Under the pieces are notes generated by a model, which ran no database searches, had not been told where the DNA came from, and worked only from the letters and a program-made list of their open reading frames with translations. Source: Planctomycetota bacterium (GTDB lineage: Bacteria > Planctomycetota > SZUA-567). From it: DNA of 32,018 bases. Made by a program: the position numbers and the translations under genes. This document shows, in pieces, positions 66-27,396 of this stretch; position 1 is the stretch's first letter; every line of letters starts with the position of its first letter. The stretch lies in the NCBI GenBank assembly GCA_036745875.1, contig DAIOFH010000035.1, forward strand, positions 1 to 32,018. The letters run 5' to 3'.

Positions 66-1052
66 TTATCTGGATATTTCCTTCACTGTCTCCCACCCCT
101 TCGGGGCCAGCTTCCGCCCGGCGGGAGTTTTCGACAGATATCCCTGCTGTATCAAGTACGGCTCATGAACGTTTTCGAGTGTGTCTTCGGTCTCTCCTAC
201 GGTGACCGCGATAGTCTTCAGTCCAACAGGTCCCCCGTCATGCATGGCGAGCGTTTCCAAAATCCGGCGGTCCATCTCGGTAAGCCCGTTTTTATCGACA
301 CCCAGCATCCGCAAAGCCTCTTCGGCGATTTGCATATCGATGGTGCCGTTCCCCTTTACCTCCGCGACATCCCGCGCCCGCGAAAGAAAGCGGTTGGCAA
401 TTCTGGGCGTCCCCCGGCAGCGCGATGCCAATTCCCACGCGCCGTCATCGGCGAGGCCAACTCCGAGAATGCCTGCCGACCGCCTGAGAATAATTTGCAA
501 TTCCTGCGAATTATAATAATCCAGCCGTTCCAGAATGCCGAACCGCGCCCGGAACGGCGCGGTCAACAAACCGTCCCGCGTCGTCGCGCCGATAAGAGTA
601 AATCGGGGGATGGTAAGGTGAATGCTTTTGGCATACAGGCCGGAATCCATCACAATGTCGATTGTCCAGTCTTCCATCGCGGAGTACAGGTATTCTTCAA
701 CAACCGGCGACATACGGTGAATTTCATCGATAAAAAGGATCTGCCCTTCGCCAAGGCTGGTCAACAGTCCGGCCAGATCGGCGGGCCGCTCGAGAGCGGG
801 TCCGGATGTGGCGTGGGATTCAACCCCCATTTCAGCGGCAACGATACCCGCCAGCGTCGTTTTTCCCAGACCGGGAGGGCCGGACAGGAGAATATGATCG
901 AGCGGTTCGCCGCGCTTTTTGGCTGCGGCTATATATATGCCAAGATTGTGGCAGATTTGTTCCTGACCGGGGAAATCGGCAAAACACTTGGGACGCAGTC
1001 GGTTTTCGAAAATCCTGTCGGTAGGCTCCGTATTGAAGGCGTTTTCCGGCAT
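66..1052 (-). CDS. ruvB: Holliday junction branch migration helicase RuvB
   Basis: Translation has Walker A GPPGLGKTT, DEIHR, and the TIPRFTLIGATTRDGLLTAPFRARFGI motif. Start trimmed to MPENAF (ATG at 1050-1052) because the upstream 43 codons of the ORF have no RuvB counterpart. Confidence 0.9.
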   Translation of the reverse strand: MPENAFNTEPTDRIFENRLRPKCFADFPGQEQICHNLGIYIAAAKKRGEPLDHILLSGPPGLGKTTLAGIVAAEMGVESHATSGPALERPADLAGLLTSLGEGQILFIDEIHRMSPVVEEYLYSAMEDWTIDIVMDSGLYAKSIHLTIPRFTLIGATTRDGLLTAPFRARFGILERLDYYNSQELQIILRRSAGILGVGLADDGAWELASRCRGTPRIANRFLSRARDVAEVKGNGTIDMQIAEEALRMLGVDKNGLTEMDRRILETLAMHDGGPVGLKTIAVTVGETEDTLENVHEPYLIQQGYLSKTPAGRKLAPKGWETVKEISR

Positions 1053-1207
1053 CAGAGTGGTTCCAATAATTATGCGGCAAAATTGGCGCCGCAATTCGTC
1101 AGGCGAGGCGCGAAGAATAGGCGTGACCCAAGCGGTTGTAACTGGGAGCAACGAAGGCTGATGGAAAAAGTGCAAGCCCATTTTGCAGCTTAATTACTGG
1201 AACCGCT

Positions 1208-3904
1208 CTAAAATTGGACATCCTTCAAATCGGCATCGGTGATGGGCGCTTCGATCATCGAATCAGAAAGATAATACACATCGGGATAACGACCTTCGGC
1301 CAACTGATCGACAATAGGCGTATACAACGGCGGCGGACGGTCCATGCCCATAAAACTCTTCGGCGAAAGGGTAAAATAAACGCCTCGGTCATCGGCATTG
1401 CGCTTTTGCACATAGCTCACCGAAAGTTCAAAGGTATCAAGGTCCCGGAATATCGAGACTCGATATTGATTGAAACCATGACGGACACCGGTCTGGTTAT
1501 TTCTCCACTCATTCGAATCCCGCCATTCGTAGCCAACCGCCGCTTCGATGGCGTAGTGGCTTGAGTCATTCCATAATTTGGTTCTGACAGCAAAGAAAGT
1601 CTGGTCGGACTGATCGGAATACGGGTAACGCCAGTATCTTCCGCGATAATGATAATGATTGGCGGTAATGCGGAAGAGATTCCCCAGCCGCCAGTCCGAA
1701 GTTAAAATGGCCCGGTTCACCGTATTATCGTGAGTATCATAATCGATACTTGCGCCCAATGTCAAACGAGGCAGTGGGCGATACGTCACTTCGAAATTAA
1801 TCTCAGTGAACTTTCTGTCGTAGTTGATTTTGGCCTGGTCTTGCCTACGCGGATAATAATAGAATCTCATACTGAAATCAAGGATATCACGCGTGGGAAT
1901 AACAGACCCGGATGCGTTTTCATAATAGCGGCGCTGTAGTTTATTTTGGAGTTCAAAACCCAAACGACGCTGACGATAATAAACGTCATATTCGTCCATG
2001 GGATAAATATTACGGTCATAATCCAATTCGGGCTTGGAATTTTCGAGATAACTAACGATTGGCTCGGTGATGAGACGCCATTGATCGTGGGCACCAAACA
2101 CAGTGTAGAATCGGGTGGACAAATCGGCGCCGAAGGGAACGGCATAATTGGTATCACTCCCGCCTCGCCTCGATAGCTGCCCGGAAGTGAAAACATTAGC
2201 CCTGCGGGCCACAAGATCTGCTGGCAGTAACTCGCCGTCAGGAAGAGGCGTTCCAAGAGTCTTGCTATAATATGTTGTTCGCAATCCGACCCATGGCTTG
2301 AAAGTGAGTGCGTTTGCCACGCGAAGAGGCGCTTCGAGGATAGCTTCATTATGCGCGCGGAAAAATGCACCGAAATGGTTCTTGTCCCAGAGACGGCTTT
2401 GTGAAAGACCCCATTCATCAAGTCCCCATATGCCGCCAGCACTCTCGCGCATGTATTTTACCGCATCTTCGTCAAAGTACTTGTCAACAACACCGACCCG
2501 CATGTCATCCTTGAAGAATAACGGCAGGTTGCCAATTTGCAGTGACGGAACAGTTAAGCGTATTTCAGGATAGTACGCGGTTTGCGTCTGCCACTTGTTG
2601 GATAAACGGGATTGGGCGACAAATTCGAGCTCCCAATGCTTGTCGAGTCGACGGACATCAACAAAATTCTGTGGTTCTTTTTCGTTCCAATATTTACTGG
2701 AATCATATTCCTTGAGATAATCGCGGTCATGGTATAACTTAGCTTCGGCACGGACATCCCATAGTTCGTTAAGTTGCTGGTAGTGTTCCCATTCAACGGC
2801 CCAGCGGAAATCCTTCCGGTACAGTGAGGGGGTCCAGTTCTGATTCCACGAATAAATACGGTCTTCATTATCCCCGATGGCACGGTCATAATCTTGGTCT
2901 TTGGAGATGGCGTGCTCATACACACCGTAAAGCTTGAGCTTGCCCTTCGAATCCCACTGACCCATATTATATCCAAACTCAACGCCTACACCGGTCCCGC
3001 GCTCGGTGAAATAGTCAAGGTCGAAAATAACTTTATCCATGCGGAAATAACGATTGGGATTGTCGTTCCTCAGCTTCCATCCCCACTGCGTCCTGGCAAA
3101 ATAACCAAGGTCACTGGTATGCCCCGCCGAGAAGCGCATCCAGGGCCAGTCGTACTGCAGGTCACGAATCAGGTAGGGAAAGTACAGAACCGGCATGTTA
3201 CCTACCCTGACCGTATTGTGGTATGACTCAATCTTTTCATTGCGCCGCAGAAGTGCTGCTGGCGAGTTGAAATACCATTTGGGCCTGGCAAATGAATCAG
3301 GGGTAATCTTCGCATCAATCAATTCAAATGTTTCTGAATCATGAGCGCGTAGCTCCTGGGCATGAACAAACATACGCCTGATAGGCCCGGCATCCTGCGT
3401 GCTGCTGAGACTTTGCGCCCTGGTCATATCGAGTGACGGCGCTTCATCAAGGAAGTCTTTCACCGGCAGCCGAACATTCTTGTTATCCATCTTCAATCGA
3501 ACGTTCTTGGCAAGGCCCTTCCATTCCTGGTAGTTGAAGGATAACTGATCGCAGTAAAACGCATTGCCATTGGGATCGTCGAAAACGACGTCCCCTTCGG
3601 CATAAATTTCCTGGAGCTCTACGTTCAGGACCATATTACGCGCGGAAACGGTGACTTGCGGCAGGACGATGACGGCATAGTTTCTGAGAATGGCGATGCG
3701 ATGGCCCTGTTCGTCTTCTTCCCAGTCCAGCATTCCGCCGCGGAAGTCGATGCCTTCACCAAGAAGACCTGCCATGCCGCCGGCACCGGAACCTGCTTCG
3801 CCGGAATACGCGGATCCGGCGACTATCCCGAAGGAGATTGCCGGAAATAGCAAGAAGAATAAATGTAGCACCACGCTACTTCTTTTTTGCCTGCGCGACG
3901 GCAT
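1208..3904 (-). CDS. lptD: LPS-assembly outer membrane protein LptD (OstA family), approx. 898 aa
   Basis: N-terminal signal peptide (MPSRRQKRSSVVLHLFFLLFPAISFGIVAGSA), OstA-like beta-jellyroll segment, and a very long aromatic-rich beta-barrel region ending in a C-terminal F. Start chosen at the ATG before the signal peptide. Confidence 0.6.
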   Translation of the reverse strand: MPSRRQKRSSVVLHLFFLLFPAISFGIVAGSAYSGEAGSGAGGMAGLLGEGIDFRGGMLDWEEDEQGHRIAILRNYAVIVLPQVTVSARNMVLNVELQEIYAEGDVVFDDPNGNAFYCDQLSFNYQEWKGLAKNVRLKMDNKNVRLPVKDFLDEAPSLDMTRAQSLSSTQDAGPIRRMFVHAQELRAHDSETFELIDAKITPDSFARPKWYFNSPAALLRRNEKIESYHNTVRVGNMPVLYFPYLIRDLQYDWPWMRFSAGHTSDLGYFARTQWGWKLRNDNPNRYFRMDKVIFDLDYFTERGTGVGVEFGYNMGQWDSKGKLKLYGVYEHAISKDQDYDRAIGDNEDRIYSWNQNWTPSLYRKDFRWAVEWEHYQQLNELWDVRAEAKLYHDRDYLKEYDSSKYWNEKEPQNFVDVRRLDKHWELEFVAQSRLSNKWQTQTAYYPEIRLTVPSLQIGNLPLFFKDDMRVGVVDKYFDEDAVKYMRESAGGIWGLDEWGLSQSRLWDKNHFGAFFRAHNEAILEAPLRVANALTFKPWVGLRTTYYSKTLGTPLPDGELLPADLVARRANVFTSGQLSRRGGSDTNYAVPFGADLSTRFYTVFGAHDQWRLITEPIVSYLENSKPELDYDRNIYPMDEYDVYYRQRRLGFELQNKLQRRYYENASGSVIPTRDILDFSMRFYYYPRRQDQAKINYDRKFTEINFEVTYRPLPRLTLGASIDYDTHDNTVNRAILTSDWRLGNLFRITANHYHYRGRYWRYPYSDQSDQTFFAVRTKLWNDSSHYAIEAAVGYEWRDSNEWRNNQTGVRHGFNQYRVSIFRDLDTFELSVSYVQKRNADDRGVYFTLSPKSFMGMDRPPPLYTPIVDQLAEGRYPDVYYLSDSMIEAPITDADLKDVQF

Positions 3905-21599: not shown

Positions 21600-21623
21600 A
21601 GGATTAATGGCATATTAATCCTC
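21599..21623. other. Perfect 10-bp AT-rich inverted repeat GAGGATTAAT-ggcat-ATTAATCCTC at the MATE/rtcB convergent junction
   Basis: Read directly from the sequence. The rtcB stop codon lies inside the stem, and gaggatta is tandemly repeated immediately upstream (21591-21606). Confidence 0.4.
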
Positions 21624-22814
21624 CGGCCGTTCCCCTCCCTCAGCCATACGAACCAGTTTGGGCTCGAACTTCGCAACGATTTCCACCAGGTCTTCCTGTT
21701 CGCGCATGACTTCGTCGATATCCTTGTAGGCCATCGGACATTCGTCCAGACCGGCGGAAAGGAGGGTAATGCCGCGTTCGGCGAGGAAGTCCAGCATCTG
21801 CCGCTTGGTGAAGGTGTTTTTCGCCGCGTTGCGGCTCATGCGCCGACCCGCCCCGTGGGAGGCGGACAACAGGGACTTTTCGTTTCCCTTGCCCCTGACC
21901 ACGTAGCCCGGCGTCCCCATTGAACCGGGGATGATTCCAAGCGTACCCAGGGCGGCGGGCGTCGCGCCTTTTCTATGGACAACCACTTCCCGCCCGCCAT
22001 GCGTTTCCTTCCAGGCGAAATTGTGGTGGTTTTCCACATCGGCCAAAACGTCGACGCCCAGGTTCCTGGCGATCTTCTTGTGGATCAGCTGGTGGTTGGC
22101 GGACGAATACTCGCCCATGAGTTCCATGGCCCGCCAGTATTCCCGCCCTTCCTGCGAGTCCAGGTCGAACCAGGCGAGGTACGACTGCTCCTTCGACAGT
22201 TCGGGATGGAGCTTTGCCGCCAGCTTCGAATAATGCTGCGCGATCGCGCCGCCAGTCCCCCGTGAACCGGAGTGCGACAGCAGGGAAAGATATTTTCCTT
22301 CCGCCAATTCGCCCGCATGGCGGCCGGCCTTCTCCGGCCGCGACCACAGTGCGGCAGGTTCGTCCAGGGTCAGGATGCCGAATTCGACAAAATGGTTCCC
22401 CGACCCCGAGGTGCCGAGTTGCGCCCATGCCTTGTCCTTGTTGGCCCGCGTGACCGGCGAGACGTCCCAGTCCATATCCATGACCGGGTGTTCGTTGCGC
22501 TTTTTCATTTTCGAGCCTACGCCAAAGACCGTTTCCCGCAGCAAGGCATTGCGCAGGCGTTCAGCCTGGCCGGTCAGGGCGGAGACGGGCAGGTCCAGGA
22601 CAGTCATTTTCATCCGGCAGGCGATATCCATGCCGACTGCATAGGGGATAACCGCGTCCTCGGTGGCCAATACGCCGCCGATGGGCAGGCCGTAGCCCTG
22701 ATGCGCATCAGGCATCAACGCCGCCGCCACGGAGACGGGGAGGGAACAGGCGTTGCGCATCTGCTTCAGGGCGCCTTCTTCGATATCCGTACCCCACTGG
22801 TTATAGTCGATCAT
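21615..22814 (-). CDS. rtcB: RNA-splicing ligase RtcB (3'-phosphate/5'-hydroxyl RNA ligase)
   Basis: 399 aa; MPDAHQGYGLPIGGV, HNFA, GSRG and other RtcB motifs. AAGGA SD. Starts 4 nt after the rtcA stop. Confidence 0.9.
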   Translation of the reverse strand: MIDYNQWGTDIEEGALKQMRNACSLPVSVAAALMPDAHQGYGLPIGGVLATEDAVIPYAVGMDIACRMKMTVLDLPVSALTGQAERLRNALLRETVFGVGSKMKKRNEHPVMDMDWDVSPVTRANKDKAWAQLGTSGSGNHFVEFGILTLDEPAALWSRPEKAGRHAGELAEGKYLSLLSHSGSRGTGGAIAQHYSKLAAKLHPELSKEQSYLAWFDLDSQEGREYWRAMELMGEYSSANHQLIHKKIARNLGVDVLADVENHHNFAWKETHGGREVVVHRKGATPAALGTLGIIPGSMGTPGYVVRGKGNEKSLLSASHGAGRRMSRNAAKNTFTKRQMLDFLAERGITLLSAGLDECPMAYKDIDEVMREQEDLVEIVAKFEPKLVRMAEGGERPED

Positions 22815-22818
22815 TGTC

Positions 22819-24837
22819 TCATCCTTTATCGCGGCAGGTCACGGTGTATACGGAGTAGTCGTCCGTCTGGTGGTCGAATTTGACCGGCAGGAACGACTCG
22901 ATGACCTGCATGTTGGTTTTACTGTGTTCCGTCAGGGGAAGGGTGGAAAACTCCCCGCCACCCGCCAGGGCGAGCGGCAACAATATCTGGTCGGCGGAAT
23001 GCTTGCCCAGGACGGCCGTCGACGCGGCATACAGCCTTGCGGCGCTTCCGGCGGCGTCAGCCACTTTTTCAGCCCTGAGCGCCTTTTCGCCAAAGGCGGT
23101 GAATACTTCGCTGTGGTCGCCTTTCTCGTCCCGCGCGTCCACCATGACGACATTGCCGGGACCGGCGGACTCGACCTGCAGGACGCGGCATTGGCTGTCC
23201 GACAGGCCGAGGCGACGGCGCAGGGCCTCCGCCTCCCGCTTGGCGACGGATTCCGGCAGCCCGCTGTAGACGCAACAGCCGCTCAATTTCACTTCTCCGC
23301 CGCGTTTCAGCAAAGACAACGGCGACAATTTCCCGCCCTGCACGCGGACTTTTACCTTGCCGCCCCCGGCGGGAAAAAAGCCGTGACGCGCAAGGGCAAC
23401 ATCCACTGCCGCCCCCATGCGCCGCAGCAGCGGCAAAAAGGTGCGTTCGAGGAAATCGTAGGGCGGAGCGAGCGGGTTGTGGGTGCCGCCTTCCAGGGTC
23501 AGGTTCGACTCCCCATCCGCAGACAGCAAGACAGGCAGGACGGTTTGCAAAACCAAAGTCGCGGACCCGGCCGTGCCGATGGCGAACGAATAGTTGCCGT
23601 GCCGGATACGTCCGGGTTTGAACTCGATTTCCGTCGAACCGGGGAAGTCGCCGTCGACCCGGGCGCCGCATATTTCCTCCGCCGCCTTGACAGCGGTCAT
23701 ATGCTGCCGCATAAGTCCCGGCTTGCGCCGCCTGGCTCGGATTTTATCGATGTGCAGCGCAGTTCCCGTGATCATCGACAGGGAAAGGGAGGTGCGCAAC
23801 ACCTGCCCTCCCCCTTCGCCAAGCGATCCATCTATATAAACCATCGGATACTCCTCCCGCCTGGTGATGGTCGCCGCCTCGGAAGCCTTCTTCGCTTCGA
23901 CCACTTTGTTCATGATCGCCTTGATGTCGCCGGGGAGTATTATGTCCCTGACGCCGAAGGAGGTGACCGAATACCCGTACTGCACGGCCTTGGCGCGAAG
24001 CTCCCGTTCCAGATCTCCGGCCAGGGAGTCCTTGTCCGAAAGCAGGCTGTCGAGTTCGACGCCGCCGACCTTTGCCCGCAGCAACAGTTGCGCTTCGCGG
24101 TACAGTGCCTGCTTCGCGTCCACCGATTCGTCCAGGCTTTTCATGACGTCGACGACCCTGCAGGTCAACGAAACGTTCAGCCTCAGCGCCAGCTTGTCGG
24201 CGGTCAACATGTCCTGCCCGCCGATGTCCAGGGTAATTTCCCGCATATCGACGACGCTGGACTGGTTGCCGTCGACAGCCTTCCAATAGACGTATTTCCC
24301 CGGTTCGAGCAAGCCGACGAATTCGCCGTTGTGGTAATACGACGCCTTGCTGCCGGGTCGGACCAGGACGACGAGAAAATGCGCAGCAAACGCCGGGTTC
24401 ATCATGATGCTGTCCAGGTCGGCGTGGACGAATCGGCCATGCTCGTCCCGGATGTCGTATACTTCATAGCGGATATCGACAAGCCCTTTCCACCAGGCCC
24501 AGCGTCCCGGCTCAAGGATACCGCAAAAGACGCCGTCCCGCCAGACCAGCGCCCGCTGATTGGAGTCAAGATCGAGGAGCGCCACTTCCTCTTCGGGCAA
24601 AAGACCGGACTTGACCATGGCGGGAAGCTGTTCGTGCCTGAACCACGGGTCGAGGCGGGAGAAGACCTCCATGGTATACTCCCCCATGGGGTCGAAAATC
24701 CATTTCTCGTCCTTTTCAAGCAGGCCCTGGAATTTGCCGTTTCTCCACAACAGGCCGCGCTGATAATCACGGACGCGAAATTTCCTGAGTCCGGCGAAAT
24801 AGGTGGCAACGTCGCCGATGAATTTGAGGGTGCCCAT
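22819..24837 (-). CDS. rtcA: SPFH/band-7 domain :: RNA 3'-terminal phosphate cyclase RtcA fusion protein (672 aa)
   Basis: The C-terminal 341 aa align along their length to RtcA (YIDGSLGEGGGQVLRTSLSLSMITG, RQHMTAVKAAEEICGA, LVLQTVLPVLL, DQILLPLALAGGGEF, LTEHSKTN). The N-terminal 331 aa form an SPFH domain (VVDMREITLDIGGQDMLTADKLALRLNVSLTCRVVD...GYSVTSFGVRDIILPGDIKAIMNK). A single ORF with no stop between them. ATG at 24835-24837 with AGGAGA SD; the ORF-track M1 is a TTG. Confidence 0.8.
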   Translation of the reverse strand: MGTLKFIGDVATYFAGLRKFRVRDYQRGLLWRNGKFQGLLEKDEKWIFDPMGEYTMEVFSRLDPWFRHEQLPAMVKSGLLPEEEVALLDLDSNQRALVWRDGVFCGILEPGRWAWWKGLVDIRYEVYDIRDEHGRFVHADLDSIMMNPAFAAHFLVVLVRPGSKASYYHNGEFVGLLEPGKYVYWKAVDGNQSSVVDMREITLDIGGQDMLTADKLALRLNVSLTCRVVDVMKSLDESVDAKQALYREAQLLLRAKVGGVELDSLLSDKDSLAGDLERELRAKAVQYGYSVTSFGVRDIILPGDIKAIMNKVVEAKKASEAATITRREEYPMVYIDGSLGEGGGQVLRTSLSLSMITGTALHIDKIRARRRKPGLMRQHMTAVKAAEEICGARVDGDFPGSTEIEFKPGRIRHGNYSFAIGTAGSATLVLQTVLPVLLSADGESNLTLEGGTHNPLAPPYDFLERTFLPLLRRMGAAVDVALARHGFFPAGGGKVKVRVQGGKLSPLSLLKRGGEVKLSGCCVYSGLPESVAKREAEALRRRLGLSDSQCRVLQVESAGPGNVVMVDARDEKGDHSEVFTAFGEKALRAEKVADAAGSAARLYAASTAVLGKHSADQILLPLALAGGGEFSTLPLTEHSKTNMQVIESFLPVKFDHQTDDYSVYTVTCRDKG

Positions 24838-25163
24838 TGTTTTCTCCTTCTCTATCTTTTCTTCGTATGGTTGTTCTGTAAAAATTGGCTTCGCAAAGAC
24901 CGGACTACGCACGTCCAAGCATTACTCAACGGGGAAGCGGCGGAGAAAAGCGGAGCGGACTGGATTTCGCCGGCATCGGGAATACGCTTCAGCCCGACGA
25001 CGCCCTGCCTTTCCTTTCCCCGTTTGCCCGTACCGTTTCCGCAGGCCGGTTTTACTTTTCCTCGGGACGGGATGCGGATTTCGCCGAATTCCCGTCTTTA
25101 GAGGACAGACGCTCGTTTTCCTTTCTTCCCGAAGCCAAAACTGGTGGAAAGAGGCAACCCTTT

Positions 25164-25236
25164 CCCAAGGAGTGGGAGTTGAACCCACGACCCGCTGATC
25201 CATAGTCAGCTGCTCTACCCACTGAGCTATCCGAGA
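25164..25236 (-). ncRNA. tRNA-like element 1: canonical D, anticodon-like and T arms; weakened acceptor stem; loop CUAUGGA; no CCA
   Basis: Minus-strand read UCUCGGA-UA-GCUC-AGUGGGUA-GAGC-A-GCUGA-CUAUGGA-UCAGC-GGGUC-GUGGG-UUCAACU-CCCAC-UCCUUGG-G. The acceptor pairs only 5 of 7 positions (internal UU/CU mismatch). The would-be anticodon AUG is not a natural bacterial anticodon. Confidence 0.5.
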
Positions 25237-25308
25237 TGGTGGACAATACGGGAGTCGAACCCGCCGGGAGTCGTCTCGGACCCGCCGCCATACCGTCATG
25301 GATTGCCC
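25237..25308 (-). ncRNA. tRNA-like element 2: perfect acceptor stem, T arm and encoded CCA, but a non-canonical core
   Basis: Minus-strand read GGGCAAU-CCAU-GACGGU-AUGG-CGGC-GGGUC-CGAGAC-GACUC-CCG-GCGGG-UUCGACU-CCCGU-AUUGUCC-A-CCA. The D-like stem starts at position 8 and the would-be anticodon loop is 6 nt. Abuts element 1 head to tail. Confidence 0.5.
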
Positions 25309-25414
25309 CGCTCGGCCCGATTCTTTTCAGAACCCGTTCCCCGGTACAGGCCCGACCGATCTTTTGGGAGAGGCGGGAATGCCGGCGGAAGAATCGAACA
25401 CGCTTTTGGTAAAA

Positions 25415-25429
25415 ACAACAGGCTTGCCA
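25415..25429 (-). promoter_or_regulatory. Candidate sigma-54 (-24/-12) promoter for the tRNA-like elements and rtcAB
   Basis: The minus strand reads TGGCAAgcctgTTGTT, which has the exact TGGCAC-N5-TTGC spacing, GG conserved, and GC replaced by GT. It lies about 105 nt upstream of tRNA-like element 2 and is oriented toward rtcA/rtcB. RtcR has a GAFTGA motif, implying a sigma-54 target nearby. Confidence 0.3.
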
Positions 25430-25615: not shown

Positions 25616-27214
25616 ATGGCAAAACTGAAAAAGCACCGGCCGCTTGTCGTCATCGGCATGTTCGGAACAAACCTCGACGCTTCGCCGCAGGGTCGCAGCG
25701 AACGCTGGGAGCGCTGGCGGCCAAGCCTGTCCATTTGCCAGCACGATGATCTCATAGTCGACCGCTTCGAGTTGTTGCACGGCCGCGGCCATGACAAAAG
25801 CGCCGCCCTCCTCGCGGGCGACATGGAAACGGTCTCGCCGGAGACGAAAGTCAACCTGCACGAAATAGCCATGCACGATCCCTGGGATTTCGAGGAAGTC
25901 TATTCCGCGTTGTACGACTTTGCCCACGGCTATGCCTGGAGGCACGAGACTGAGGATTATCTTGTCCACATCACCACCGGCACGCATGTGGCGCAGATCT
26001 GCCTTTTCCTCCTGGCCGAATCGAGGCATTTTCCGGCGAAGCTTCTGCAAACCAGCCCGCCGAAACGGCGGCGAAGTCAAAACGCCGGTTCCTTCGCCGT
26101 CATCGACCTTGACCTGTCCAAATACGACCGCCTCGCCAGCCGCTTCGACAAAACGACTGAAAACGACCTCGCGTTCCTCAAGTCCGGGATCGACACCAGG
26201 AACAAGCGCTTCAACCGGCTTATCGAGGAAATAGAGAAAGTTGCGGTGCGTTCGCCCGAGCCGCTCCTGCTGATCGGGCCGACGGGCGCGGGCAAATCCC
26301 AACTTGGCAAAAAAATATACGAGCTCAAGAAAAACCGGCGGCTCGTCAGCGGGCCGTTTGTGGAAGTCAATTGCGCCACCCTCCGGGGCGACCAGGCGAT
26401 GGCCGCCCTGTTCGGCCATGCCAAGGGCGCATTCACCGGCGCGATCGAAAGCCGGGACGGCCTACTCAGGAAAGCGGACAAGGGCATGTTGTTCCTGGAC
26501 GAGATCGGCGAACTCGGCCTTGACGAACAGGCGATGCTGCTCCGGGCAGTGGAGGAAAAACGGTTTTTGCCGCTCGGGTCCGACAGCGAGGTGTTTTCCG
26601 ATTTCCAGCTCATCGCGGGAACCAACCGCGACCTGGCGCAGGAGGCCGAGGCGGGAATGTTTCGCAGCGACCTTCTCGCCCGCATCGATGTATGGACCTT
26701 CCGCCTGCCGGGATTGGCCGAGCGGCGGGAGGACATCGCGCCAAACCTTGACTACGAACTGGAGCGCGCGTCGGGGCAACTCGGGCGCAGGATCACCATG
26801 AACGCGGAGGCGAGAAAGGCATTTCTGGAGTTCGCCGATTCGGACCGGGCGACCTGGGCGGCCAATTTCCGCGACTTGGCGGCGGCGGTGACGCGGATGG
26901 CCACCCTCGCCGACGGCGGAAGGATCGCCCTTGCCGAATGCCGGACGGAGATAGGCCGCCTGGAACAGCAGTGGCGGTCGGGCAAGAGCGAAAGCGTTCC
27001 CGCCTTCCCCCATCTGGACCTTTTCGACGCGGTGCAGCTGGAAAAAGTGCTGGAGATATGCAGGCGTTGCGAAAGCTTGTCCGGTGCCGGCCGCGTGCTT
27101 TTCCAGACGTCGCGGCAAAAACGCAAACAAGCCAACGACGCCGACCGCCTGCGGAAATACCTGGCCAAATTCGGCCTTTCCTGGAAAGACATAATTAAAA
27201 CTGAAAATCAATAA
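25616..27214 (+). CDS. rtcR: Sigma-54 dependent transcriptional regulator RtcR (CARF domain, AAA+ domain, HTH)
   Basis: 532 aa. It is collinear with E. coli RtcR as recalled from memory: N-terminal CARF region with RWxRWRP, Walker A GPTGAGKS, GAFTGA in HAKGAFTGA, and C-terminal DADRLRKYLAKFGLSW. Confidence 0.9.
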   Translation: MAKLKKHRPLVVIGMFGTNLDASPQGRSERWERWRPSLSICQHDDLIVDRFELLHGRGHDKSAALLAGDMETVSPETKVNLHEIAMHDPWDFEEVYSALYDFAHGYAWRHETEDYLVHITTGTHVAQICLFLLAESRHFPAKLLQTSPPKRRRSQNAGSFAVIDLDLSKYDRLASRFDKTTENDLAFLKSGIDTRNKRFNRLIEEIEKVAVRSPEPLLLIGPTGAGKSQLGKKIYELKKNRRLVSGPFVEVNCATLRGDQAMAALFGHAKGAFTGAIESRDGLLRKADKGMLFLDEIGELGLDEQAMLLRAVEEKRFLPLGSDSEVFSDFQLIAGTNRDLAQEAEAGMFRSDLLARIDVWTFRLPGLAERREDIAPNLDYELERASGQLGRRITMNAEARKAFLEFADSDRATWAANFRDLAAAVTRMATLADGGRIALAECRTEIGRLEQQWRSGKSESVPAFPHLDLFDAVQLEKVLEICRRCESLSGAGRVLFQTSRQKRKQANDADRLRKYLAKFGLSWKDIIKTENQ

Positions 27215-27320: not shown

Positions 27321-27396
27321 GCGGGCGTAGCTCAGTGGCTAGAGCACCACCTTGCCAAGGTGGGGGTCGAGGGTTCGAATCTCTTCGCCCGCTCCA
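27321..27396 (+). tRNA. tRNA-Gly (anticodon GCC)
   Basis: GCGGGCG-TA-GCTC-AGTGGCTA-GAGC-A-CCACC-TTGCCAA-GGTGG-GGGTC-GAGGG-TTCGAAT-CTCTT-CGCCCGC-T-CCA; a canonical cloverleaf with CCA encoded. Confidence 0.9.

Follow-up and report, generated by a model that had tools for sequence, protein, structure and literature searches.

Background

Loci that combine the sigma54 AAA+ activator RtcR, with its CARF-type N-terminal domain, with the genes for RtcA and RtcB are represented by the rtcBA operon of Escherichia coli and Salmonella (PMC7790460, PMC9650030). The occurrence of an SPFH gene within an rtc locus has also been described already, in the case of PaFlo8 (PA14_60630) of Pseudomonas aeruginosa (PMC13086221). 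Here we analyse a locus that brings both features together in a Planctomycetota bacterium (lineage SZUA-567), in a stretch of 32,018 nucleotides (nt) hereafter called the window (NCBI GenBank assembly GCA_036745875.1, contig DAIOFH010000035.1, positions 1 to 32,018 of the forward strand), and in which the SPFH and rtcA genes form one open reading frame (ORF) with a sequence resembling a strong Shine-Dalgarno (SD) element at their junction.

The window shares RtcR, RtcA and RtcB with the E. coli and Salmonella operon, and its sigma54-like promoter is a motif match. It differs in that rtcA precedes rtcB, that an SPFH gene comes first, that a leader of about 590 nt carries a tRNA-like RNA, and that rsr (Ro60) is absent from the operon. 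With the PaFlo8 locus and the homologous locus L002 it shares the gene context, an SPFH/Band_7 gene between a divergently oriented rtcR and rtcA/rtcB, and the same order is found in L002 and L005. Whereas the SPFH proteins of PaFlo8 and L002 stand alone and have a full C-terminal tail, that of the window is missing 55 residues and continues in frame into RtcA. What is new here is a fused, truncated SPFH at a known kind of locus, brought about by an ordinary mutational mechanism.

In-frame internal starts that yield two isoforms are well known from IF2 alpha and beta (infB) and from the long and short forms of both ClpB and CheA, in which they are conserved across species and experimentally shown. 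The window resembles infB, clpB and cheA in having an SD and an ATG inside a longer ORF, in the same frame, with two products possible from one mRNA; it differs in that its putative internal start is the relic of a once-separate gene and occurs in one lineage. Our literature search on internal SD sequences together with gene fusion gave only cancer papers. As regards the SPFH half, the SPFH domain, wall helix, cap helix and C-terminal strand of stomatin oligomers (PH stomatin, 3bk6; the human stomatin 16-mer, PMC12344292) are recognisable in intact relatives, whereas the SPFH part of the window protein ends in the middle of the wall helix, without cap helix and strand. Its subfamily also departs from the stomatins in having a beta-rich N-terminal region of about 185 amino acids (aa) in place of the membrane hairpin.

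We propose that the fused gene was born by deletion and that RtcA is probably still initiated internally, an explanation to which, taken as a whole, we assign a probability of roughly 80%. Its evolutionary part, a lineage-specific fusion through a single in-frame deletion of 180 nt with the ribosome-binding site (RBS) of rtcA retained, appears close to certain from the comparison of homologous loci.

A single reading frame across SPFH and RtcA

On the minus strand of the window, an uninterrupted mechanical ORF extends from 24918 to 22819 and would encode 699 aa from TTG 24918. Pfam searches of the fusion ORF recovered Band_7 (PF01145, 9.3e-24) at aa 186-356 and RTC (PF01137, 8e-80) at aa 367-682, plus RTC_insert. 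The real SPFH start is probably ATG 24837 rather than TTG 24918, because translation is taken to begin at the equivalent Met both in relatives and in the public annotation, and an AAGGAG SD (24844..24849, minus strand) lies 6 nt upstream. This start gives a fused SPFH(deltaC)-RtcA ORF of 672 aa (22819..24837, minus strand; stop codon 22821..22819), a product for which identical records exist in NCBI, ENA and Logan (P0244). An exact look-up of the 699-aa product returned no record, and the 27 extra N-terminal residues of the TTG-start ORF (24838..24918, minus strand) are probably untranslated.

The SPFH-derived part (23855..24837, minus strand) comprises the N-terminal beta-rich region, the SPFH domain and, from the long helix that follows this domain, the first ~26 residues, ending in the motif RREE. 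It is followed by the RtcA coding part of 341 codons (22822..23844, minus strand), which contains the RTC match and starts at the internal ATG. At the junction, inside the single ORF, the minus strand reads cgGGAGGAGtatccgATG, and the codons ACC AGG CGG GAG GAG TAT CCG ATG GTT TAT ATA GAT GGA specify T-R-R-E-E-Y-P-M-V-Y-I-D-G.

A sequence-only reading of the window had drawn attention to a strong SD placed exactly 6 nt before the RtcA-domain Met, and the layout is indeed as it described: the SD-like 8-mer GGGAGGAG occupies 23858..23851, the spacer TATCCG 23850..23845 and the ATG 23844..23842. That this Met corresponds to the natural N-terminus of RtcA is likewise borne out. The closest stand-alone RtcA among the 120 matches listed (P0121, 94% identity) is exactly 341 aa long and starts at it; moreover, the top matches in an exhaustive phmmer search with the 672-aa protein were either SPFH-only (query residues 14-330) or RtcA-only, most of the latter beginning at query residue 332-334, that is, at the internal Met.

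Separate genes in relatives and a 180-nt deletion

P0121 is encoded on two Logan contigs, L005 and L006, which are 86-89% identical to the window at the nucleotide level and share with it the order SPFH, rtcA and rtcB, followed by MatE on the opposite strand. On both contigs SPFH and rtcA are two separate genes, the boundary reading ...ACC AGG CGG GAA GAA ACC GCG, then the tail, then CTT ATT TAA tgtataaaGGAGtatccgATGgtttatataga; AGG CGG GAA GAA is followed by a 55-codon tail, the stop codon TAA and then tgtataaaGGAGtatccgATG. The comparison with orthologous loci that had been suggested as a check does therefore reveal a stop codon between SPFH and rtcA. The window has the layout of L005 and L006, ...AGGCGGGAAGAA-(tail)-TAAtgtataaaGGAGtatccgATGgtttatataga, minus nt 840-1019 of L005. 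In BLAST comparisons, L005 segments 1-842 and 1019-3237 are next to each other in the window, overlapping by 4 nt, and these alignments together with a direct reading of L005 and L006 place the deletion junction at 23854..23855 (minus strand).

The lost 180 nt begin with the third base of the first Glu codon of RREE and run through the second Glu codon, the last 55 codons of SPFH and its stop to take in 8 of the 18 nt between the genes. The upstream stop and intergenic DNA are gone from the window and the frame is continuous, and in L005, L006 and L002 the two components are separate, adjacent and on the same strand, as expected of a fusion by boundary deletion. The window's GGAGtatccgATG is identical to the rtcA initiation region of L005 and L006, GGAG-tatccg-ATG being the ancestral RBS of rtcA, base for base. 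The old SD now supplies the second Glu codon together with the third base of the first, and the old spacer is translated as Tyr-Pro (23845..23850, minus strand; the same 6-mer in L005 and L006). The breakpoint carries an ambiguity of 1 nt (a shared A) if the ancestor had GAA GAA as in L005, and of up to 5 nt (AGGAG microhomology, 23855..23851) if it had GAG GAG as in many relatives.

The earlier suggestion that two formerly separate genes were recently fused with the downstream RBS retained thus holds in the light of L005 and L006, and simple loss of a stop codon, the mechanism that it had offered, is rejected by the 180-nt gap relative to L005. The view of the 8-mer as a retained RBS stands for one half only: the GGAG half derives from the ancestral rtcA SD (aaGGAG in L005), and the upstream GGGA half comes from the Arg and Glu codons of the invariant SPFH motif RREE.

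In the SPFH homologues examined, the motif, in the context ...ATITRREE, is followed by a conserved tail of ~55 aa, TAAMRHQLN.AR.LAENPVLMRLRE.E.LEKVA...KL.V.LGDKGL.EKV..LI*, from which the window departs in having none. RREE is unchanged in all 43 family members that were aligned, and 12 more positions in the tail are invariant. Since the motif is invariant, since a tail with invariant positions is kept family-wide and since none of the examined loci is fused, separate genes are, on this comparative evidence, the ancestral state. The opposite polarity, with a fused ancestor and derived separate genes, was rejected on the conservation of the 55-aa tail, with its invariant positions, across the whole family. 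In L001, an 88%-identical relative, the sequence after the SPFH stop (3210..3258) matches L005 up to tgtataaaGGAGTATC and then departs (TTATGGATGATTTTCCAAGCGGTTAAGG) for the last ~30 nt of the contig, a divergence that could be a contig-end artefact or reflect a different downstream gene.

These observations suggest the following course of events. The ancestor had, as do L005, L006, L001 and all other family members examined, a stand-alone SPFH (slipin/stomatin-like) protein of ~384 aa, encoded in an operon putatively under RtcR/sigma54 control; the stop of its gene was followed by an 18-nt spacer holding the rtcA SD (aaGGAG), by 6 nt (tatccg) and by the rtcA ATG. A deletion then removed everything between a point within the first Glu codon of RREE and the position directly before GGAG in the rtcA SD. 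The length of 180 nt is divisible by 3, so that ribosomes starting at SPFH would read through the old SD, restoring Glu-Glu, and through the old spacer, as Tyr-Pro, into RtcA, giving the 672-aa SPFH(deltaC)-RtcA. Ribosomes would most likely still start at ATG 23844, the native 341-aa RtcA being made alongside the fusion, and it is this continued supply of free RtcA that may have made the deletion tolerable.

The internal Shine-Dalgarno element

The motif alone is unremarkable. GGAGG occurs 73 times across the two strands of the window, the 8-mer GGGAGGAG once in 64 kb, about as expected, and 26 of the 1028 ATGs in the window (~2.5%) are preceded by equally strong predicted anti-SD pairing. But its placement is, by comparison with the relatives, not a matter of chance, because the block of GGAG, TATCCG and ATG is identical to the RBS of their separate rtcA. 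Among the loci with rtcA after the SPFH gene, eight of ten have an rtcA with its own strong SD after a gap of 18-144 nt.

Under the assumption of a generic anti-SD tail in place of the organism's own (the 16S rRNA lies outside the window), the predicted SD:anti-SD pairing is -11.2 kcal/mol at the window site vs -8.5 kcal/mol at the ancestral rtcA site, the values for the other starts being -8.8 (SPFH), -8.5 (rtcR) and -6.1 kcal/mol (rtcB). The predicted mean unpaired probability is 0.53 at the window site vs 0.40 in the ancestral arrangement. From the intact initiation region and from the predicted pairing and accessibility, we lean towards the view that stand-alone 341-aa RtcA continues to be translated from the retained site alongside the fusion.

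An alternative to this view, which we consider unlikely, is that the SD-like string is an inert by-product without an initiating role, GGGAGGAG being mere Arg-Glu-Glu codons and only the full-length fusion being made. Indeed, GAGGAG or GAGGAA is the commonest spelling of the RREE Glu codons in intact genes, and the intact genes of L011, L022, L029, L062 and L071 use CGG GAG GAG (GGGAGGAG; RREE codons CGGGAGGAG) with no start codon nearby. Because RREE is invariant, such purine-rich SD-like spellings are common in intact genes and are there no evidence of an internal start; the frequency of SD-like strings inside ORFs of the window, seen in the GGAGG count, points the same way. What sets the window's 8-mer apart, as judged from these alignments, is that the spacer and ATG after it are inherited: they are exactly those of the ancestral rtcA, in the same AAGGAG-N6-ATG layout as the SPFH start (spacer aaaaca before ATG 24837). 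The GGAG of the 8-mer is the old SD itself, and neither the predicted pairing nor the predicted accessibility of the site is reduced.

No relative among those searched has the fused ORF, the SD and ATG being kept only as the start of a separate gene. The other alternative of the sequence-only reading, a fusion and a stand-alone RtcA made from one mRNA, is plausible in mechanism, the ancestral initiation site being intact and, by prediction, if anything stronger, but by this comparison the junction is not a conserved two-product design.

Truncation and constraint of the SPFH half

The protein of the window has the SPFH/Band_7 domain expected of a slipin or stomatin-like protein and lacks, through the deletion of the 55 residues after RREE, the distal part of the post-SPFH wall helix, the cap helix and the C-terminal strand of the oligomeric cage. 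An intact SPFH relative aligns through the tail with the helices of PH stomatin (3bk6) and human stomatin in matches to PDB. A mixed alignment of the fusion with homologues of both halves (A4) overlaid unrelated halves and was not used for structure prediction, so the AlphaFold2 model discussed here is that of the intact relative (mean predicted local distance difference test score, pLDDT, 84). In this model RREE (326-329) lies in the middle of a helix of 43 residues (303-345), which is followed by a helix at 347-364 and a C-terminal segment. The breakpoint falls inside helix 303-345. Deleted with the tail are the remainder of the wall helix, the whole cap helix and the C-terminal strand, and the loss of these stomatin-type oligomerisation elements suggests that the SPFH half is probably functionally impaired.

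Pairwise ratios of nonsynonymous to synonymous substitution rates (dN/dS) between the window and L005 are 0.079 for the SPFH half, 0.044 for RtcA, 0.051 for RtcB and 0.098 for MatE. Either the deletion is recent relative to the window-L005 divergence (synonymous divergence, dS, 0.5-0.8) or the truncated half would still be under selection. A three-way count of unique changes (18 in the window, 3 in L005, 9 in L001) was rejected as a test of relaxed selection, L005 and L001 being sisters (dS 0.21) and the window their outgroup, and constraint was judged from the pairwise dN/dS and from the invariant residues kept.

The N-terminal region (24285..24837, minus strand; aa 1-185 of the 672-aa protein) contains three similar beta-hairpin repeats with the motif ..G.F.G.L.PG...W., predicted by AlphaFold2 in the intact relative as three beta-rich modules with pLDDT above 90. 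Extra copies are present in P0002 and P0003 (532 aa), and no membrane hairpin is evident in this region, unlike in classical stomatins.

Distribution of the fusion and remaining alternatives

The search with the SPFH half identified 380 homologues, the best 120 of which all stand alone, with lengths of ~366-400 aa and, in a few, of 532 aa owing to extra N-terminal repeats; the next-best SPFH match, the stand-alone P0001, is 88% identical to the window's SPFH half. Similarly, the 120 matches listed for the RtcA half are all stand-alone RtcA, with no fusion among them. None was found in 81 loci of GTDB species representatives together with L001, L002 and L005, where the tail after RREE measures 55-60 aa, with one of 149 aa, and the exhaustive phmmer search against 1.84 billion cluster representatives returned no protein matching both halves. 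The shared RBS/start string GGAGTATCCGATGGTTTATATAGA had no exact match in JGI metagenome contigs, which thus added no close relatives, and the nearest named relatives in a scan of genome contigs were metagenome-assembled genomes (MAGs) of Planctomycetota and Desulfobacterales, with a best match of 60%. As far as these collections reach, the SPFH-RtcA fusion is a singleton and lineage-specific. A few RtcA homologues in the representative library, P0278 (547 aa), P0269 (441 aa), P0251 (433 aa) and P0277 (421 aa), are extended at the N-terminus by 90-180 aa of non-SPFH sequence, which may reflect fusions of other kinds or wrongly called starts.

Several points weigh against the explanation that we favour. 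Ribosomes elongating through the internal site could lower internal initiation, as could the loss of the upstream stop, given that termination and reinitiation may have been coupled in the ancestor, and the pairing energies were computed with a generic anti-SD rather than with that of the organism. The SPFH half, for its part, is without decay, having a dN/dS of 0.079 and all 34 of 34 family-invariant residues; this absence of decay fits equally well, on the sequences compared, a neutral event of very recent date and a fusion maintained by selection.

The latter possibility, that the fusion is a selected bifunctional design in which the SPFH N-terminal/SPFH module tethers RtcA and the retained internal SD adjusts how much RtcA is tethered and how much is free, making it a two-isoform gene of the infB, clpB or cheA kind, seems to us improbable. 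It would be favoured by the in-frame character of the deletion, by purifying selection on the SPFH half over the window-L005 divergence, with a dN/dS within the range of its neighbours (0.044-0.098) and every family-invariant residue kept, and by the functional link between SPFH and rtcA that their conserved operon membership implies, PaFlo8 of P. aeruginosa included (PMC13086221). However, an in-frame outcome has a prior of one in three, a low dN/dS is expected from the mere recency of the deletion, and the SD was inherited, not evolved in place. The deleted tail, with its 12 invariant and many near-invariant positions, corresponds moreover to the oligomerisation elements of stomatins, and the fusion is a singleton in all searches.

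That the 180-nt gap arose as an error of assembly or sequencing, with two genes in the actual genome, is very improbable, even though the source appears to be a metagenome-derived assembly to which the fusion is unique: L007, a Logan assembly of SRR4051759 with 2 samples on record, matches the window at 100% identity over 3,320 bp that include the junction, the same junction is present in a 113.8-kb NCBI/ENA contig, and no intact allele of the window's lineage (>88% identity) was found in the protein collection searched. Because a second, independent assembly reproduces the junction, and because its flanks share at most 5 nt, far below an assembler k-mer, which makes repeat collapse implausible, the junction is by these comparisons not an assembler artefact.

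Implications for gene fusion and annotation

A deletion-born fusion whose junction can be read to the nucleotide provides a clear natural example of how gene fusions arise. One in-frame deletion removed the stop and the C-terminus, turned a downstream SD and spacer into Glu-Glu-Tyr-Pro codons and probably left RtcA separately translatable, which suggests that retained internal RBSs can buffer the cost of fusion. A strong internal SD in an annotated fusion ORF may flag recent fusions or mis-merged genes. In annotation, the locus is best treated as an intact rtcA preceded by a truncated SPFH gene rather than as a new family of bifunctional enzymes, and its bearing on Rtc biology in general is little. 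If the gene were maintained for two isoforms, the 672-aa protein would tether an RNA cyclase to an SPFH module and the inherited RBS would supply free RtcA, a snapshot of a domain fusion explored without losing the original enzyme.

Operon context and promoter

The rtcB gene (21615..22814, minus strand; 399 aa; Pfam RtcB, PF01139, 5.5e-90) starts 4 nt after the stop of the fusion ORF, in the same order as in L005 and L002. On the other side, rtcR (25616..27214, plus strand) is divergent and encodes a sigma54 activator with both characteristic domains (Pfam RtcR, PF06956, CARF-type N-domain, 3.3e-79; Sigma54_activat, PF00158, 9.8e-46). With this adjacent, divergent RtcR and with genes for RtcA and RtcB, the locus has the composition of an RtcR-controlled rtc operon. 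A sigma54-type promoter-like motif, TGGCAagcctgTTGT (25415..25429, minus strand), is a motif match only, its -12 element being TTGT rather than TTGC. It lies 193 nt upstream of the tRNA-like element described below, and at 130-191 nt upstream in L001, L002, L047 and L071; with this position, a structured leader of ~590 nt would precede the SPFH start.

A separate SPFH gene in an rtc locus occurs in L002, with the order rtcR | SPFH - rtcA - rtcB, in L005, and in several MAGs of Desulfobacterales, Geobacter and Planctomycetota. The Pseudomonas rtc locus L088 is of the Ro60-RtcB-RlaP-RtcA type, without an SPFH gene. The SPFH subfamily is rtc-linked in only about 14 of 82 loci (Desulfobacterales, Geobacter and some Planctomycetota), and for most of its Planctomycetota copies neither RtcR nor RtcA nor RtcB is encoded within 4 kb; in L004 and L008 rtcB comes directly after the SPFH gene, rtcA being absent. 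An ordinary tRNA-Gly(GCC) gene (27321..27396, plus strand; Rfam 66.8 bits) is located ~100 nt past the end of rtcR.

A conserved tRNA-like RNA in the operon leader

The leader contains, downstream of the sigma54-like motif, a conserved tRNA-like RNA (25164..25236, minus strand) that was identified by ARAGORN and by the Rfam tRNA model (53.2 bits), and that is probably a more interesting lead than the fusion. The element is also found in L001 (1656-1730), L002 (5650-5797, two in tandem), L011 (3499-3574), L022 (3459-3533), L047 (3563-3634), L051 (3535-3608), L057 (3527-3600), L071 (3587-3657), L086 (3520-3591) and L078 (176-248), so that it occurs in 11 rtc-linked loci from distant taxa, on the operon strand and ~325-500 nt upstream of the SPFH gene. 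Its 'anticodon' is variable and often aberrant, ARAGORN calling tRNA-His(ATG) in the window and Ile(AAT), Lys(TTT), Val(AAC), Leu(AAG), Ala(AGC) or undetermined identities elsewhere. The D- and T-arms are invariant, the acceptor stem is short, at 5 bp, and the anticodon loop varies freely; compensatory changes are seen at 10 of 19 pairs, and the anticodon stem covaries. The element is possibly a tRNA mimic linked to the sensing of damaged tRNA by RtcR.

The leader RNA is reminiscent of YrlA, the tRNA-mimic Y RNAs of Salmonella rtc/rsr operons (PMC4201824), but scores 18.9 bits against the YrlA model (RF02553), below the gathering score of 69. There is no Ro60 in the operon, no TROVE/Ro60 gene being found between rtcR and rtcB, the part of the window scanned for it. 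Directly upstream of the tRNA-like element (25237..25345, minus strand), a second T-arm-like hairpin (ACGGGTTCGACTCCCGT) is followed by ...CCACCA; this region is the source of the weak YrlA match and of a weak tmRNA match. Its motif CCG.ACGGGTTC.AAC is kept in other loci (alignment A2), and loci of the Desulfobacterota type have further conserved hairpins after the tRNA-like element.

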